A stretch of 64,000 nt of DNA from Octopus vulgaris. Taxonomy: Eukaryota. Below, piece by piece: positions 2,530 to 46,640 of this stretch. Position 1 is the first letter of the stretch. Each line of letters starts with the position of its first letter. The translations under genes and the position numbers were made by a program. The notes beneath the pieces are model-generated. The model worked only from the letters and a program-made list of their open reading frames with translations, ran no database searches and was not told where the DNA came from. Where the stretch lies: the NCBI GenBank assembly GCA_951406725.2, contig OX597821.1:110236001-110300000 (forward strand), read 5' to 3'.

Positions 2530-3402
2530 AATAAAATATATGCATATATATAAACATATATGTACGTACCTACCTCTACATGTACATATACACGCATATA
2601 TGTGTACAGGACACCAAAAAGACGTCGAACACATAGAGAGACGAAAAACATAGACACAAACCAAGGAACAAGACAGGCAAAAAAAAGAGATACAGGACAA
2701 TAAGCACAACGAAAAATCCCCTTCTTCAGTCGCTAAAGTTTCATCTACTAAACGTTTCGAAGGATAAAAGCGAGACGTATACTTCGAATGAAAAATTCCT
2801 TCCTGCGAAAAGCAAATCAATTAAAATTCTGAGATCTTTTCGCAGAGGGGTAAAAAAAGCAAGACGGTAACGACAGTACAAACATATAAACAGTAAAAAA
2901 TATATATATAAACAGTAGAAAAATAAATATATAACAGTGAGAGACAGGACAAGGAGAACAAGATAAGAAGGGCTGTTAACGCCAGACGAAAAAAGTATTG
3001 CAAACGCTGGATTATAGTGGACGACGAGAGAGGAAGATGTCGACCAGTGGCCTTAGAAGGCGGGCGAGAAAGGACAGGATAGCAGTACGACGGAAGTAAC
3101 GTCGCAGATGGACGACGGGAATGGGGGAGGAGGAGCAAGAGGAAGAGAGAGAAGAAGGGGAATGGTGCGAGGAGACCATGAAGAACAGTGAGGGGGAGAG
3201 AGAGAGGAAGAGACAAGTTAAGTGAGGGAAAAAAAGACGAAAAAGGGAATGGGAGAGAAAGAAAGAAAGATGCAGAGTCGCGTGAGAGTTAATATCAAGG
3301 CGAACTTGATAAACAGAACAATCTTACTTAATAGGGTGCGTGCGTTTAGTCGTATAATATGTTAATAAAATATATGCATATATATAAACATATATGTACG
3401 TA
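2523..3402 (-). mobile_element. Non-autonomous ribozyme-bearing retroelement (Penelope-like/retrozyme-like, family 1) with 46-bp terminal direct repeat
   Basis: ATATGTTAATAAAATATATGCATATATATAAACATATATGTACGTA occurs at 2523-2568 and 3357-3402. Both ends abut (TA)n. It carries the hammerhead-like motif and is homologous to about 15990-16375 in the opposite orientation. Confidence 0.7.
2718..2850 (-). ncRNA. Putative hammerhead ribozyme with non-canonical pseudoknotted topology (family 1, copy 1)
   Basis: Minus strand: CCCCU-[CUGCGAAAAG..CUUUUCGCAG]-GAAGGA..UUUCAU..ACGU C^UCGCU-UUUA-UCCUUC-GAAACGU..AUGAAA..AGCGA-CUGAAGA-AGGGG. Core CUGANGA, GAAA and GUC are intact. Predicted cleavage is between 2774 and 2773. 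Confidence 0.75.
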
Positions 3403-5854: not shown

Positions 5855-8423
5855 CCCATTCGTGCTGAAATTTTTCTAGTGAATGAAATTACCTGAAAAT
5901 GCACAGATATTATTATTTTGACCCAAATAACATCTGAAATAAATTTCATTGAAATCCGTTTGATATTTCCTGAAATAATCACTGTCAGTTATAACATACA
6001 TCACGCACTGTGCATATGAATCTTTAATAAGCTTGTTAACTTTGCAATTTACTTATTTAGAGTATAATCAAAGTATTATATCTGACCATAGCTTTACTAT
6101 GAAAATGATTCCTCTTCACATAAATAAGATATCAAGGAAAACAGAAAATTTATTTAGTAAAATATATCCTTTTGAAATGAAACTATTCAGCTTTGCTAAA
6201 CATGATAATTCTTGAAACATTTAGGATGAACTGCTACATCACATTTTTTACATATGAAATGACGTTTCCCAGAGCACTCATTGCATCTCCGTTCATTTGG
6301 AATATATTCAATCCAGTGCTCAACACCATCATACCTTGCATTGTCTTTCAAATTAGATGTGCGTTTTCTTTGTTTTCTTTGAAATTTTGGAGTGCCATAC
6401 TTTTTCATTAGAGTTAGAGACATGTTTTCGATGAAATTGCATAATGTAATTTTGTGCCCTGCTCTATTCATCAAGATGCATGAATTTCGGGTTGCCACAG
6501 ATACAAAATATGACAAAATAGGACACCATTTATTTTGCCACATTAGAATCCTATAGGAACCGATCTTATGACCCAGAAGGTCAGCAAATCCCATATATTT
6601 GTTGTAATTTTGGATGTTTTCAGGCTGTGGAACTGGAACATATTTCTTTTGAGGCCTGTCATAGCGCTCAACCGTGGACATTTTATAGGTTTCAAAGTTC
6701 GATAGCAGAACAACATCGTTATTATCTTTCCATTTCACAGCGACTATATTTGAAGTGGACTTGAAGTCAGCTGCCCCTCTGAGGCGTGCTTTCATTTCAG
6801 TTTTCGTTTTGAAAGGACATCTAGCTGTCTTATTTTCTCTGCAGGTTCTCGATGCACAGATTCCTTTCTCAAAAAGTTTCTCCATCACTTGAATACTTGT
6901 GAAATAATTATCAAAAAATATTTCGAAACCTTTACTGTCTGGTGCTCCTACAGCATCAATGAGATCAAGGACAACGTTCCCACCGAGGCCAAATGCATTT
7001 TCGGTTTCATTGGGACCGTCTTTCTTGCCAGTGTAGATGTCAAAAGCATGTATATTTCCCTGTTGACAATAAAGGACCCAAATTTAGAAACTAAACCGAA
7101 TTGGTTTCCCTTTTATAAATTGTTTGGCATAGGGCTTGCCATAATATGGAGCCATACTTTCGCCAACATAGATGTTCTCCCAAGCCACCATATTCCTTGA
7201 ATTTTCTTTTTGTAAGTGGCCAGGTAGAGGTCTGAGTTTGAATGCACGATCGTCTCCTGAAGCATTGGCATCATCCACTAAATGGATATTTCTTAATATA
7301 CTCTCAAATCTGTCTCACCTCATGCTATTTTGTAAACTTTTTGGAACATTGTCTTCAGATGACCACTGCCTTCTTTTATTAGGAAGTGGACAGTGAGCTG
7401 ACAGAAGCAATCCACCTGAAGAATTCATACAGCTCTGATTTGTATACATTCAGAACTTTACCGTTTTGTACAGCATATCGGTTTGTTTGTTCTACAATGT
7501 CATCCAGTAATTCATCTGTGGAGAACAAACTAAATTGGATAATACTGGATTCGAGCAAGATTTTGCTTCCTCAGATATATCTACAGGCTCATATGAAGTT
7601 GAAACACGATTCGCCGCTTCGTTTTTCTTCCAATCTCTTGTTTTACTGAATTTAGTTTGTTTTAGATTTCCTGTAACTTCTTCAATTTCTTCAGGCACAT
7701 CCTGTTGACAAGAAATTCGTGCGTCAGTTTCCACAAGCCCTCTTTTCAGTCGAACCGAGGAACCTACAGCCTCATCATCTGAAGCACCACTATCGCCATC
7801 GAAGAGTTCTATATTGTGAAGGAGACCAATGTGAACATCGCCTCTGTTGCTCAGCTCTTCCAATAATGCTAGGGCTTCTGTTGTTTTAAGACTGAAAGAA
7901 AAAATTACAATGATATAGAGATGTGTGGACGCAAAATTTATTGTAAATAAAAACCAGACTATTTCAAATAAATCATATTGGCTATTTATAATGCGAAACT
8001 ATATCAACACCTAAAATATTAGGTGAGTTGTTTTATGTCTAAGTTTGCTGCGGATGTCCGTTATAAAAGACAGGGTGTTATATTTTATTTTGTTTACAAC
8101 ATAAATCTCAAATGGTAACAAATTATGCATCTCACCTATGATCATAAAAACACATAAGAGACCACAACAATGCCTACATGATTAAATAATTATAAATGAT
8201 TGGTTCACCATTTACCGCGCGTCCTGCTTGTACTCGCCACGTTGCTCAACTGTGGTTGTTACAAGTTATAGTGTAAGCATTTATTCAAACAGACTGCATG
8301 CACGTTAAGAACATGTTTCATTCTTTGATACAGATCATACACAAATCATAATTTGTATCAAGTATTTGTTTTATACCCTTATAAATTAAGTGTCAGTTTA
8401 ACCGGACGACCGGCATGAATTGA
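5855..8423 (-). mobile_element. piggyBac DNA transposon (PGBD3-like), decayed
   Basis: TTAA at 5851-5854 and 8424-8427. Imperfect TIRs CCCATTCGTGCTG and (rc) TCAATTCATGCCG. Contains a fragmented transposase. Confidence 0.88.
6196..7890 (-). pseudogene. piggyBac transposase pseudogene (frameshifts/stops)
   Basis: Motifs ESMAPYYG..KQFIKGKPIRFSF, WKDNNDVVLLSN, NYNKYMG..DL and the C-terminal cysteine-rich domain RRCNEC..FICKKCDVAVHPKCFKNYH, spread over ORFs 7492-7863, 7084-7278 and 6196-6888. Confidence 0.92.
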
Positions 8424-15769: not shown

Positions 15770-16375
15770 CACACTCCTCCTCATCTCTCTCACAACCGGC
15801 CAAATACTTCCTTTTGCATGCGGCCTTCTAACTGTAAATACACGGCTTTCTTGCGCTCCTTGAATCTCTCTTCGTCTAGGCAAAAGAGGCCATCTTTGGT
15901 TGTTTTCTTGTGTGTTTTTATTTCTTGTATTGTACTTTTATTTTGTATTTTATTTTGTATTTTATTTTTTATTTTATTTTGTAATTTTATTTGTATCGTT
16001 TTTACGTCCTGTTTGTGTCACATTTTGTTCTTTCCTTGTTTTTACCCCTCTGCGAAGTAATTTCCTTTAATTTCTTCGCAGGAAGGGCTAGTTCGACGAG
16101 TCGTGTTCTGTCCTCACCTTCGAAACACGCTGGAGTTGAACTAGGGACAGCTGATGAAGGGGATTTTTCCTTGTGTAGTTTGTCTAGTACTCTGTTTTTT
16201 CTTTGTAAAAAAAGGTTCGTTCCATGCTCGTTTTTACGTTTTCGTTCTCGTTGAGTTCTGCGTCTATTTGTGGTGTCCTGTACTCACGTATATATATTTA
16301 TATATGCATGTATATATACATATAGATGTATGTACGTACATATATGTATGTATGCATATATTTTATTTATTACAC
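15770..16375 (+). mobile_element. Ribozyme-bearing retroelement family 1, copy 2
   Basis: Homologous to the reverse complement of 2523-2860 (GGGGATTTTTC.TTGTG, GGTGTCCTGTAC, GTACGTACATATATG, ATGCATATATTTTATT); 3' end abuts (TA)n. Confidence 0.65.
16045..16162 (+). ncRNA. Putative pseudoknotted hammerhead ribozyme (family 1, copy 2)
   Basis: CCCCU-[CUGCGAAG..CUUCGCAG]-GAAGG-G-CUAGUUCGAC..CGUGU U^CUGUCC-UCA-CCUUC-GAAACACG..GUUGAACUAG-GGACAG-CUGAUGA-AGGGG. Predicted cleavage after 16107. Confidence 0.78.
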
Positions 16376-18847: not shown

Positions 18848-18969
18848 TTTCTTTCCTCAGTCGAGTTCCAGATTTCTTTGCAGTTTCATCCGGTTATACT
18901 CGAGACTGCTCCAATCTGGCCAGCCACAAGGTAAATCTAAGCTAAGAGCACTAGATTTCTTGGAAGAAA
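18848..18969 (-). ncRNA. Putative pseudoknotted hammerhead ribozyme (family 2, copy 1), within repeat ~18793-19120
   Basis: Minus strand: UUUCUU-[CCAAG..CUUGU]-GGCUGG-CCAGAUU-GGA-GCAGU C^UCGAGU-AUAA-CCGGAU-GAAACUGC-AAAGA-AAUCUGG-A-ACUCGA-CUGAGGA-AAGAAA. Predicted cleavage between 18904 and 18903. Confidence 0.75.
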
Positions 18970-21808: not shown

Positions 21809-22679
21809 TACACAAACACACATATATATATATATATATGTATATACGTCCTTCATGTAACAGCTTCCAATTTTTTTCCTCGTTCTCTTTTTCTCTGCTT
21901 ACCCCTTTTTTCTTTTCTTTTTCATTTACATTCCTCTGACTCCCACCCATCCATGCGTATAACTTATACCCCCTCCTATACACAACCTACTTATTAACTC
22001 ACACGCGTTTGCATTTAGCATGTACAAAATCTCAGCGCACACCCGTACACACACACCCACATGCAAACTCACATGGAGACACATACATACACACACGTAC
22101 ACACCTGCACACAAGCACTCACGCGTACTTATACGCAAGCACAAACAAACACATACGTACATCCACAGTTAACATACATACACATAAACGTACACACATA
22201 TTTACATATCTTTCATTCTTTTACTTGTTTCAGTCATTTGACTGCGGCCATGCTGGAGCACTGCCTTTAGTCGAACATATCGACCCCAGGACTTAATCTT
22301 TGTGAGCCTAGTACTAATTCTATCGATCTATTTTGCCGAAGCGCTGGTGTTACGGGGACGTAAACACACCAGCATCGGTTGTCAAAGGATGGTGAGGGGA
22401 CAAACACAAACACACAAACATATATATATATATATATGGAGGCTCAGTTCACATGTGATCTAAATGATTAGGTACGCTAGATAATAATAATATTGTATAC
22501 GACTTGAGATGTTTGCCTTGCGTTAATGTTTACTGTCCTGTTTAACAATTATATATATATATGTAATACAAAAATAGGACAGGAACGCAAAACATCCAGA
22601 CAGTTAGGTGATACAAAAAATGGACAACAAAGCATCTAGACAGACGATACAAAGTAAACAAGAACGGGTCAATCGGAGT

Positions 22680-22802
22680 TTAGTTTCCTCAGTCAAGCTC
22701 CAGATTATCTTTATAATTTCGGCTGGTTATACTCGAGATTACTCCAACCTGACTAGCCCCAAGGAAAAACTAAGCTAAGAGAACTAGATACCTTAGAAGA
22801 AA
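22680..22802 (-). ncRNA. Putative pseudoknotted hammerhead ribozyme (family 2, copy 2), within repeat ~22563-23050
   Basis: Minus strand: UUUCUU-[CUAAGG..CCUUGG]-GGCUAG-UCAGGUU-GGA-GUAAU C^UCGAGU-AUAA-CCAGCC-GAAAUUAU..AAUCUGG-A-GCUUGA-CUGAGGA. Compensatory and wobble changes relative to copy 1; P0 is decayed. Confidence 0.72.
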
Positions 22803-23705
22803 GCAGAGAATGTATACGAAAACAAGGACGAAAAAAACCGGAGAAATGGTACACAAATACAAAAGCAAATAAGGCCATTACCAACAGGTGTCTCTCGACT
22901 AAGGACGAATTAAATTAAGCTGGTGTGTTTGGCAGTAAAGCCTTACGGCAGGGACATATGTTTTGACAGGCACGGGGAAGAATATAGATGTTGCACGGAT
23001 TGTAGACGAACCAAGAAAGAAATGTCAGGCTTGGTCGAACACCGGTCATGCGACAGGCTTCTTTCAGTGTTCGTCTACAAAATACACTCATAAGGTTTTG
23101 GTCAGCTCGAGACTATAGTAGAAGACGCCTGCCCAAGGTGCCATGCAGTGGGACTGAACCCGGAACCATGTAGTTGGGAAGCAAGCTTCTTACCAGAGCC
23201 ACGACACTTCACACACACACACTCTCTCTCACACACACACCAACACTCTATCTATCTATCTCTCTCTCTCACACACATACATTCACACACACAGTGACCA
23301 TTTGTACACTCTCCTGCCTTCAAAAAGACACATCTCTTTCCATATCTCTTTCCACCTACCGGTCAGTCACTTTTCGGTCATGCAATGACACACGTGCGTT
23401 TCTTTGGACTATCTCTCGTTTCTGCTTTTTCTTTCTCTTGGGACTTTTTCCTGTTTCCGGCCATTCTCGAAACGTCGTTTCCACTCCAATTTTCCCCTCT
23501 AACACTTTCACTGACATCACTGTAGTATATTGATTGTGTACGTCTCATTGACTTTAGCTATTTATTCCTATTTTTTAATTTATCACATACAAGCATGTGC
23601 ACAAACATATCCACATACTTATCTATCCAGCTAGCTATCTAGCTACCATCCTAGAAATTTATCTACTTACCTCTCTACTCATCTCTGCTCACCTACTCAT
23701 CTATC

Positions 23706-45124: not shown

Positions 45125-46640
45125 TGATAAGTGGTATGAATGCCAACCGTTATCAATCACAGACAATGATCAACTGACAATCTGTACCAGTGGTTCTCAA
45201 CAAGGGTCCATATAAGATGTTGCTGTTAAAGCTTACGTGTAATAAATTAGTTACCCTAGGGCGGTGAGCTGGCAGAATCGTTAGCACGCCGGGTGAACTG
45301 CTTAGCAGTTTTTCGTTTGTCTTTACGTTCTGAGTTCAAATTCCGCCGAGGTCGACTTTGCCTTTCATCCTTACGATGGCGAGCTGGCAGAAACGTTAGG
45401 ACGCCGGGCGAAGTGCTTAGTGGTATTTCGTCTGCCGTGACGTTCTGAGTTCAAATTCTGCCGAGGTCGACTTTGCCTTTCATCCTTTCGGGGTCGATAA
45501 ATTAAGTACCAGTTACGCAATAGGGTCGATATAATCGACTTAATCCGTTTGTCTGTGCTTGATTGTCCTCGCTGTGTTTAGCCCCTTGTGGGCAATAAAT
45601 AAATAAGAAACGTTAGCATGCTGGGCGAAATGCTTAGCGGTATTTCGTCTGCCGTTACGTTCCGAGTTCAAATTCCGCCGAGGTCGACTTTGCCTTTCAT
45701 CCTTTCGGGGTCGATTAAATAAGTGCCAGTTACGCACTGGGGTCGATATAATCGACTTAATCCGTTTGCCTGTCCTTGTTTGTCCTCTCTGTGTTTAGCC
45801 CCTTGTGGGTAGTAAAGAAATAGGTATTTCGCCTGCCGCTACGTTCTGAGTTTAAATTCCGCCGAGGTCGACTTTGCCTTTCATCCTTTCGGGGTCGATT
45901 AAATAAGTACCAGTTACGCACTGGGGTCGATATAATCGACTTAATCCGTTTGTCTGTTCTTGTTTAGCCCCTTGTGGAAAGTAAAGAAATAGGTATTTCG
46001 TCTTTCTTTACGTTCTGAGTTCAAATTCCTCCGAGGTCGACTTTGCCTTTCATCCTTTCGAAGTCGATAAATTACGTATCAGTTGCGTAATCGACGGGAC
46101 CCCCCACCTCCCCCAAAATTTCGGGCCTTGTGCCTAGAGTAGAAAAGAATAAATTGGTTACGCTTCTACAATTCACAAAATATTCTAATTGTTTTTATAC
46201 AATTTCTAATGATATTTAATTATAAAATTATATTTTTGGAAATACCGAATGGCTGTAGAGGTCCAGCAGTGTAACATAGGAATCAAAGGTGTCCATAGAT
46301 AAAAAAAATGGTTGAGAACTATTGATTTACACAGATAAGAAGTTGTAATATTATCGATTAGCTATCACTGTTTTCCAGAAAGAGACTAAAAAATGGATCT
46401 TCATTGACATAGCTGAACCAGAAGACGAGAACTTTATAAAACCGGAGAAAGCGGAAAGGCATCAAGACCTGGCATAGGGCCTCAAGAGCGAGTGTAATAC
46501 TCATCGAGATTGGGGCACTTGGAACCATCTCAAAGAAGACTGAAACCTAGTGCGAGAAGTTGGAGCTACCAGACATCGTTGGAAGCACATAGTTGGCGGT
46601 CATAGTCGAAACAGCGCATGCGTTGTGAAGAGTGTTTGCG
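45125..46640 (+). mobile_element. R4/Dong RLE fragment containing a hAT-type MITE (~45188-46324), which contains a tandem SINE A array (45259-46150)
   Basis: DKWYECQP before the MITE, WIFIDIAEPED..IEIGALGTISK after it. MITE ends CAGTGGTTCTCAAC / GTTGAGAACTATTG. Array TSD AATAAATT(A/G)GTTAC. Confidence 0.8.

Follow-up and report, generated by a model that had tools for sequence, protein, structure and literature searches.

A hammerhead-type motif with a split, non-circular block order and a k-turn sequence at its hinge in repeats of Octopus vulgaris

Results

The motif and its surroundings

The stretch of DNA analysed here, which we call the window, comprises 64,000 nt of Octopus vulgaris sequence, and all coordinates given below are positions within it. 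Four repeat copies with the motif or a variant of it lie in the window:

22551-23050, minus strand: family A copy, 5′-truncated and solo, about 500 nt; identity to 29 other copies goes up near 23050 and drops near 22550
18854-18926, minus strand: another copy of family A, in which IIb is broken and the base strands are intact (descriptor match)
16084-16157, plus strand: same architecture in a B-like lineage with unrelated stems (descriptor match)
2723-2802, minus strand: same architecture in the young family C (descriptor match); matches copies elsewhere at 100% identity over 181 nt

In the first of these copies, the motif runs from 22758 to 22686 on the minus strand, and its upstream flank occupies 22759-22802. 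The parts are listed 5′ to 3′:

22771-22759, minus strand: pyrimidine tract able to base-pair with CUGAGGA and the bases after it; candidate OFF helix Z
22758-22753, minus strand: IIa, the 5′ strand of stem II, with G10.1 at 22758; detached from CUGANGA
22752-22746, minus strand: X5′, the 5′ strand of a 7-bp helix linking stems I and II at their far ends
22745-22743, minus strand: GGA, the non-bulged k-turn strand (3n G, 2n G and 1n A in 54, 52 and 51 of 55 rows)
22742-22738, minus strand: IIIb, the 5′ strand of stem III, whose last base is U16.1
22737, minus strand: C17 of an AUC triplet; cut predicted between 22737 and 22736 by analogy to hammerheads
22736-22731, minus strand: Ia, within the apical loop and followed by a 4-nt linker
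22726-22721, minus strand: IIb, in the apical loop and followed by GAA
22720-22718, minus strand: G12-A13-A14 (GAA), in the apical loop 3′ of IIb
22717-22713, minus strand: IIIa, whose first base is A15.1
22712-22707, minus strand: bulged k-turn strand of 6 nt, the 3-nt bulge AAA followed by G1b, A2b and U3b
22706-22700, minus strand: X3′, the 3′ strand of X, 1 nt before Ib
22698-22693, minus strand: Ib, at the base of the hairpin and adjoining CUGAGGA
22692-22686, minus strand: CUGAGGA (C3-A9), with no stem II strand after it

An earlier note on this DNA had described X and III as one long hairpin with the substrate half in its apical loop and the enzyme half at its base. The hairpin is present, with X and III both in the predicted fold of the window copy at high pairing probability, but it is not continuous, in that a 3x6 internal loop with a k-turn sequence separates the two helices. 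It closes a 20-nt loop holding the cut site, Ia, IIb and GAA as the note had it, although this loop also contains G12 of the GAAA. Similarly, IIa and Ib-CUGANGA do lie at the base, joined by linkers of 0, 1 and 4 nt (in agreement with the range of 0-4 nt given previously), but IIa is found 66 nt upstream of CUGANGA instead of after it, and the catalytic strand is thus broken at A9/G10.1. The core of the description, a hammerhead-type center with this hairpin anatomy in a repeat linked to Penelope-like elements (PLEs), stands.

The anatomy of the motif is not due to chance. A descriptor of the block order finds four matches in the window, three of them at strict thresholds, as compared to none in 40 shuffles, and it finds 119 strict matches in 640 kb of fetched loci as compared to none in 5 shuffles. 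A search of the window with Rfam gave no match at the gathering threshold and no hammerhead at E values up to 5. Twister, pistol and HDV-like folds were dismissed by eye against their consensus, as well as by Rfam.

The copy in the window is decayed and probably switched off. Compared with the majority sequence of 27 relatives, it has differences at 11 of 108 columns, and its duplexes are weaker than those of the relatives' majority (stem II, -5.0 vs -10.1; stem I, -4.6 vs -6.4; stem III, +0.4 vs -2.9 kcal/mol). Its overall fold is no stabler than that of shuffles (z +1.04), and the core is buried in the predicted structure. Pairing of the upstream tract with CUGAGGA has an energy of -8.8 kcal/mol, a value reached by 9 of 500 shuffles. 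We rejected such an anti-core helix Z as a general feature of the motif, since it is strong in the window copy, in the B-like copy of the window and in family E, but not significant in A2, B, C and D.

Copies, families and units

The element in the window, which ends in (AT)n, is a copy of a retroelement with a non-coding tandem unit of about 770 nt, which we refer to as family A. A first look at the genome gave 3041 candidates for this family, the best other copy being 89% identical to that of the window. Units are spaced by 768 nt in locus L014, and related loci carry the unit of about 770 nt in partial tandems along with inverted, truncated copies. Since tandem and inverted copies occur without an ORF, we take the element to be a non-coding tandem-unit element with Penelope-like insertion habits. 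No sense ORF of any kind was found within about 1.5 kb upstream of family A copies, and a search for an ORF partner using PLE proteins with a C-terminal EN domain found none, though these queries would miss most of a Naiad ORF.

These repeats are not pLTRs in the sense of flanking an RT/GIY-YIG ORF in sense orientation. They share with non-LTR retrozymes the non-coding tandem units with one ribozyme-like motif each, as seen in L014 and in arrays of family C. The pLTR and tandem repeats invoked by the earlier note thus do not apply to the window copy, which is a solo, 5′-truncated, non-coding unit with neither an ORF beside it nor a tandem partner. In fact, most copies are solo. A second whole motif on the same strand and within about 1.5 kb of the first was present in 1 of 30 loci of A1, 2 of 30 each of A2 and B, 1 of 25 of D and none of 12 of N. 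In family C, two whole motifs within this distance were present in 14 of 30 loci, some of which come from the same arrays.

Families A2 and C are young and have near-identical copies. In family C, whose tandem units measure 835 nt, 43 of 50 copies are identical over 150 nt, and the 100% identity of the copy at 2723-2802 over 181 nt likewise indicates that this family is very young. Its arrays cross up to six cut sites, and units differ less within arrays than between them (2.4 vs 4.7 substitutions, 23 units). The 3′ ends lie mostly about 254 nt past the cut, and the 5′ ends are scattered. These arrays fit copying round a circle, as is the case for retrozymes, though not uniquely, and shared variants within an array could also arise from local duplication. 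Contigs resembling family C were found in four sequencing runs that we guess to be RNA, and they show neither ends nor circles; no run listed as RNA contained the window copy.

Across families, the 5′ ends of inserts do not pile up at the cut. Seven of them lie in the 10 nt before CUGANGA, as compared to 1-9 in other bins, which is not significant. Several partial copies (L191, L192, L198, L099, L204, L157, L277) start within a few bases of CUGANGA, as if the reverse transcriptase had stalled at stem I, and such starts were not significant in the pooled count.

Some further features of the window deserve mention. The second family A copy lies 3.8 kb from the motif and on the same strand. A SINE-like repeat at 23060-23220 (minus strand) directly borders the element at its 5′ end, and SINE-like units are clustered in tandem at 45266-46084.

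Conservation of the core and covariation of the stems

The same wiring was found in seven sequence lineages of the genome (A1, A2, B, C, D, E and N). For family A, 57 of 70 loci were aligned, leaving out 11 with indels and two that are truncated; 21 of the rows derive from a pattern that fixes Ia, IIb, GAAAC and CUGANGA. In the four helices of this alignment, 94.7% of the cells are paired, as compared to 11-41% in slid controls, and 45 cells are changed on both sides, as compared to 12.7 in shuffles. The number of pairs with a double change (eight) was not above shuffles (71 of 500). In B, C and D taken together, 14 of 26 pairs are changed on both sides vs 5.3 in shuffles. Because related copies inflate such counts, we place the weight on lineages whose stems are wholly different.

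By this measure, helices I, II, III and X all covary across the seven lineages. Stem I is paired in 96.4% of family A cells, with both-sided changes in two of its six pairs, and helix X shows such changes in two of seven pairs in family A and in six of ten in B/C/D. Stem III, which has 5 bp in family A, covaries as well, an A-U pair being replaced by G-C in 14 of 55 rows. For stem II, where IIa and IIb are paired in 94.5% of family A cells, covariation is found mainly between lineages. The upstream IIa reads GAAGG in B, GAACG and GAGCG in D, ACGCC in E and GACACC in N, and its partner IIb changes along with it both between B and D and among D copies, as well as in E and N.

The core behaves differently from the stems. 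C3-A6, G8, A9, GAAA, U16.1 and a non-G at position 17 are kept across lineages while N7 and every stem change. In family A, N7 is G in 28, A in 15, C in 10 and U in two of 55 rows, with the other core positions kept. The same holds in family E, which was not selected by pattern, where N7 is U in 10, C in nine and A in six of 25 copies and other core positions are conserved in 21-24 of 25. The C17 column is invariant in the A1 alignment; other lineages have C, U or A, and G never occurs as the state of a lineage. The motif thus has the conserved CUGANGA, GAAA and NUH of a hammerhead, its free N7 and its covarying stems I-III, but it lacks the stem II strand that follows CUGANGA after 0-2 nt. 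It also departs from types I, II and III, since its blocks follow the order S-G-C instead of the circular C-G-S, and it has no Rfam match.

Several ways of repairing the split were considered and rejected. A stem II formed from the bases after CUGANGA reaches at most two pairs with IIb in family A. In B it can form four pairs that do not covary, in D it breaks at the fourth pair, and in A, A2, E and N it is absent. Covariation was not above shuffles for a fourth helix closing A9/G10.1 (IV), nor for a helix from the hinge to the tail (Y). Splicing that would join CUGANGA to IIa was discarded as well, because there is no donor after A9 and no such joint in contigs; in C and in part of the B and D copies, IIa is preceded by an acceptor-like YAG, and many copies have GG.

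Two minor observations concern the same region. A G just before position 10.1 is kept in A, B, C, D and E (25 of 25 in family E), but not in family N, and the bases preceding it can pair with CUG of the core. Furthermore, two single descriptor matches with unrelated stems, L031 (minus strand) near 1823 and L036 (minus strand) near 2100, may represent further lineages or chance.

A k-turn sequence between helices X and III

When helix III is taken as the canonical stem, the 3x6 loop separating X and III has the sequence of a standard k-turn, namely a 3-nt bulge followed by G.A, A.G and U.G. Of 55 family A rows, 45 have both GA steps, and four of 42 family A matches have a hinge with a plain 3-nt bulge. 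Family E, in which X, I and II are all different, has the same k-turn sequence, with G.A in 22 of 25 copies and A.G in 14 of 25, another eight having A.A at a CpG. In family N, the non-bulged strand is TGA in nine of 10 untruncated loci and shifted in one, the GA of the bulged strand being fixed by the search pattern. The X/III joint therefore has k-turn sequence in three lineages, A, E and N.

The hinges of B, C and D do not have this sequence. They are near-symmetric and often AGUA/GAA (e.g., L149 about 1570-1615), which presumably resembles the loop E/sarcin-ricin motif, and they may be straight. From 10.1 to IIIb, the path is 16 nt long in each of A, E and N, the families with a shorter X having longer spacers.

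Like standard k-turns, the majority sequence of the family has a 3-nt bulge, G.A, A.G, 3b.3n = U.G and a C-G before the bulge. It differs in its setting, since it would here lie inside a predicted hammerhead and close a ring, an arrangement for which a literature search gave no example. K-turns with 3n = G are reported to adopt their fold with metal ions only (PMC4382518), which predicts ion-induced folding of the family A k-turn.

Discussion

Relationship to known hammerheads

The closest relatives of this wiring are the ribozymes described by Eckert, Friedrich, Weinberg and Weinberg in 2023, who defined the blocks S, G and C and validated the types SGC and CSG (PMC10085705). The octopus motif shares with them the reversed S, G, C cycle, an Ia-IIb link of 3-4 nt, a helix that joins stems I and II at their far ends (our helix X is the counterpart of the "I" helix in SGC ribozymes) and a short X-III link. 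It differs in that it is opened inside block C at A9/G10.1, such that IIa and X5′ are found at the 5′ end and the intact 3′ block C of type SGC (Ib-CUGANGA-IIa-I helix) is missing, and in that both X-III links are present and form the predicted k-turn. Also, SGC and CSG are reported only from metatranscriptomes and metagenomes (PMC10085705), whereas the octopus motif occurs in thousands of copies in an animal genome. Among the papers found by literature searches, no title or opening of an abstract describes this split-core wiring, though subscription papers and supplements may. Judged by its sequence, the wiring is the non-circular order of SGC and CSG opened at A9/G10.1.

A second comparison is with the minimal type I hammerheads of PLEs, in which the core likewise lies near the 3′ end of PLE-related repeats and an insertion at A9/G10.1 is tolerated. 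These have the circular order and form dimers by a swap at a missing or weak helix III, whereas helix III of the octopus motif has 4-6 covarying bp and any dimer would form via stems I and II. Lunse et al. 2017 reportedly also studied PLE hammerheads that are minimal or have a short helix III.

The organization of the repeats resembles that of animal non-LTR retrozymes (PMC7229834; bioRxiv 10.64898/2026.07.22.740005), which are PLE-linked, non-coding tandem units with one hammerhead each, present as monomers to multimers. Those units measure 170-400 nt and carry a canonical type I hammerhead, and their circular RNAs have been demonstrated (PMC7229834; bioRxiv 10.64898/2026.07.22.740005), whereas the octopus units measure 770-835 nt, carry a permuted ribozyme and are known here from genomic sequence.

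Cleavage by a single molecule or by a dimer

The best explanation, to which we give even odds, is that intact copies form a non-circular, hammerhead-type RNA that folds back at the k-turn and cuts after C17 as a single molecule. In such an RNA, the k-turn would bend helix X back along the stack of III, core and II, which would let IIa and Ib-CUGANGA dock into the molecule's own loop, and the rest of the element would leave and re-enter at A9/G10.1. Two cuts in a tandem transcript would yield a unit-length RNA that would be ligated to a circle, and a Penelope-like reverse transcriptase, probably that of a Naiad, would prime at (TA)n and copy round the circle. A rod fold with the upstream tract paired to CUGANGA may keep circles and old copies, including that of the window, switched off.

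Cleavage in cis would require a sharp turn, the point on which the earlier note based its case for a dimer. The k-turn sequence encoded at the X/III joint in family A, and also in E and N, would provide for it, the included angle of a k-turn being 50 degrees (PMC5061560). A rough triangle estimate without atomic coordinates lets the ring close in cis at 40-60 degrees, provided that the sixth, weak pair of stem II opens; with a stem II of 6 bp and a link of 0 nt, closure at 50 degrees fails by the same rough estimate, the gap being 9.9 A and the reach 6.5 A. Cleavage in cis is also argued against by the hinges of B, C and D, by the four family A matches with a plain bulge, by the frequent tandems of family C, by the lack of insert 5′ ends piled up at the cut, and by the break at A9/G10.1 with its long flanks, for which we found no tested precedent. 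In the portions of PMC10085705 and PMC4209133 considered here, only 1-2 extra bases are reported, and in the former A9/G10.1 was assumed to take no more than this, block C being otherwise uninterruptible.

The alternative that fares best is the one put forward in the earlier note, an obligate, reciprocal head-to-tail dimer in which each loop docks on the base of the other molecule, such that solo copies and monomer circles would be silent and tandem transcripts would cut. We regard it as unlikely, though as a serious contender. The strain on cis closure with an intact 6-bp stem II speaks for it, as do the hinges of B, C and D if they are straight, and the k-turn would also suit the corners of a reciprocal dimer. 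Two corners of 50 degrees leave 19 A between the II-III stacks in A and E by the rough estimate, which is close to helix contact. In family N, however, the arm of 8 bp reduces the spacing to 15 A, a poorer fit, and Naiad_Ovul, with this tail, is listed as complete without a pLTR.

A dimer would furthermore solve a problem of the SGC and CSG ribozymes, which cleave at 0.004-0.19 per min, also during transcription and with X-III links down to 0 nt, a short link that in the authors' hands did not fit the crystal structure (PMC10085705). We found no concentration series for these ribozymes in the portions of that paper considered, and they could therefore be dimers, too. Stable circles, as expected under obligate dimerization, would also explain arrays that cross many cut sites. 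On the other hand, both models require two cut sites for a unit to be released, and the tandem arrangement thus does not separate them.

What speaks against a dimer is that the sharp bend needed for folding in cis is encoded in family A, and that helix III, with 4-6 bp, is not weak as it is in hammerheads known to depend on dimerization; the architecture thus does not predict cleavage by dimers only. In minimal PLE hammerheads, dimerization is attributed to a missing helix III (Cervera and de la Pena 2014, PMC4209133), and the need for dimers in amphibian retrozymes to a short one (PMC7229834). Those helices are missing or have 1-2 bp with a palindromic loop, as compared to 5 bp in family A; a palindromic stem III of 4 bp, like that of minimal PLE hammerheads, is found in family C only, and there it speaks for the dimer. 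Contrary to what the earlier note took as established, PMC4209133 reports only low activity for dimers of minimal PLE hammerheads. Invertebrate retrozyme hammerheads are reported to cleave as monomers, that of a coral alone at about 0.8 per min (PMC7229834). In addition, we found no sequence feature that would forbid self-docking. The proposed copy-number sensor is not supported. Under the dimer model, the copy at 18854-18926 could dock on the loop of 22737 one way only.

A further, rather improbable explanation is that the motif is a hammerhead-derived, conserved structural signal, recognized by the reverse transcriptase or by a k-turn-binding protein, that cuts rarely or never. This would be in keeping with the broken catalytic strand, with inserts that extend across the cut site instead of ending at it, with predicted ground states that often pair CUGANGA, and with the fact that Naiads have spread without recognized hammerheads (PMC8557442). 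However, the retention of the core while N7 and the stems change is the pattern expected under selection on catalysis.

The least probable reading, and one to which we give little credence, is an SGC-like fold across units of a tandem or circular RNA, with S, G and Ib-CUGANGA from one unit and IIa and X5′ from the next, or else with a weak downstream stem II in B, C and D; it would free one X-III link, as in the validated SGC ribozymes, and B and C can form four pairs (two of them G.U) after one extra A, a known PLE trait (PMC4209133), but the downstream stem II is without covariation, and it breaks off in D when the fourth pair is reached and does not exist in A, A2, E and N. Moreover, both X-III links have to belong to one molecule for the k-turn to form, and a local X would form first during transcription.

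Significance and the link to Naiads

With this motif, there would be a hammerhead wiring beyond the six enumerated, the catalytic strand could be opened at A9/G10.1, and non-circular hammerheads would be present in an animal genome at thousands of copies. The k-turn could bring cleavage under the control of proteins of the L7Ae family. Whether the motif acts as a monomer or as a dimer also bears on the open geometry problem of SGC and CSG. If an obligate dimer were true, the thousands of solo copies would remain silent in host transcripts, tandem transcripts would cut themselves and monomer circles would stay closed. This would amount to a new mechanism of dimerization via stems I and II, explain the short link of SGC and CSG, and supply the missing ribozyme of Naiads.

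In either case, the motif is a candidate for this ribozyme. Craig et al. 2021 described Naiads as having (TA)n targets, partial tandems and inverted truncated copies (PMC8557442), as is the case for the octopus elements. They are reported to lack canonical hammerheads, with Naiad_Ovul given as complete, without a pLTR and with HHR_half_core (PMC8557442). By eye, the consensus 3′ ends of Naiad_Obim and Naiad_Ovul (PMC8557442 supplement) have the same wiring and k-turn pattern as the octopus motif, such that the wiring is found in Naiad tails as well as in the non-coding tandem-unit retroelements of about 770-835 nt. A pattern derived from this type of tail has 266 matches in the octopus genome and none in a reversed control. 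One locus of family N carries a C-terminal ORF fragment 1.3 kb upstream that is Naiad-like by eye, with no Pfam support. Family A differs from Naiads in having no ORF and unrelated stem sequences. Since there is no ORF upstream of family A, it is from family N that we infer a Naiad partner which would mobilize it.

Naiads may use more than one hammerhead wiring, to judge from their 3′ ends. Several bivalve Naiad tails have no obvious core in the stretch displayed (PMC8557442 supplement). In the same supplement, several nematode Naiad 3′ ends show the canonical order of CUGANGA and GAAAC, along with a stem II region that is long.

Finally, other hammerhead-like sequences were encountered in the window and in fetched loci. 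At about 3545-3515 (minus strand) of the window, the short stretch CUGUUGAAGA...CGAAACGU in another repeat resembles a minimal type I hammerhead of PLEs in degenerate form, and it lies directly upstream of the family C unit. A young full-length PLE with many copies encodes a 781-aa RT + GIY-YIG ORF and a second, upstream ORF of 359 aa (L299; L094). Both of its terminal repeats carry a minimal hammerhead-like motif in which U3 and A8 replace C3 and G8 (L299:1280-1310 and 6065-6095; L094 about 2670-2700). At L094 2950-3110, an inverted repeat CUGAAGA-GGGG...CCCC-GAAA lies antisense and downstream of a PLE.
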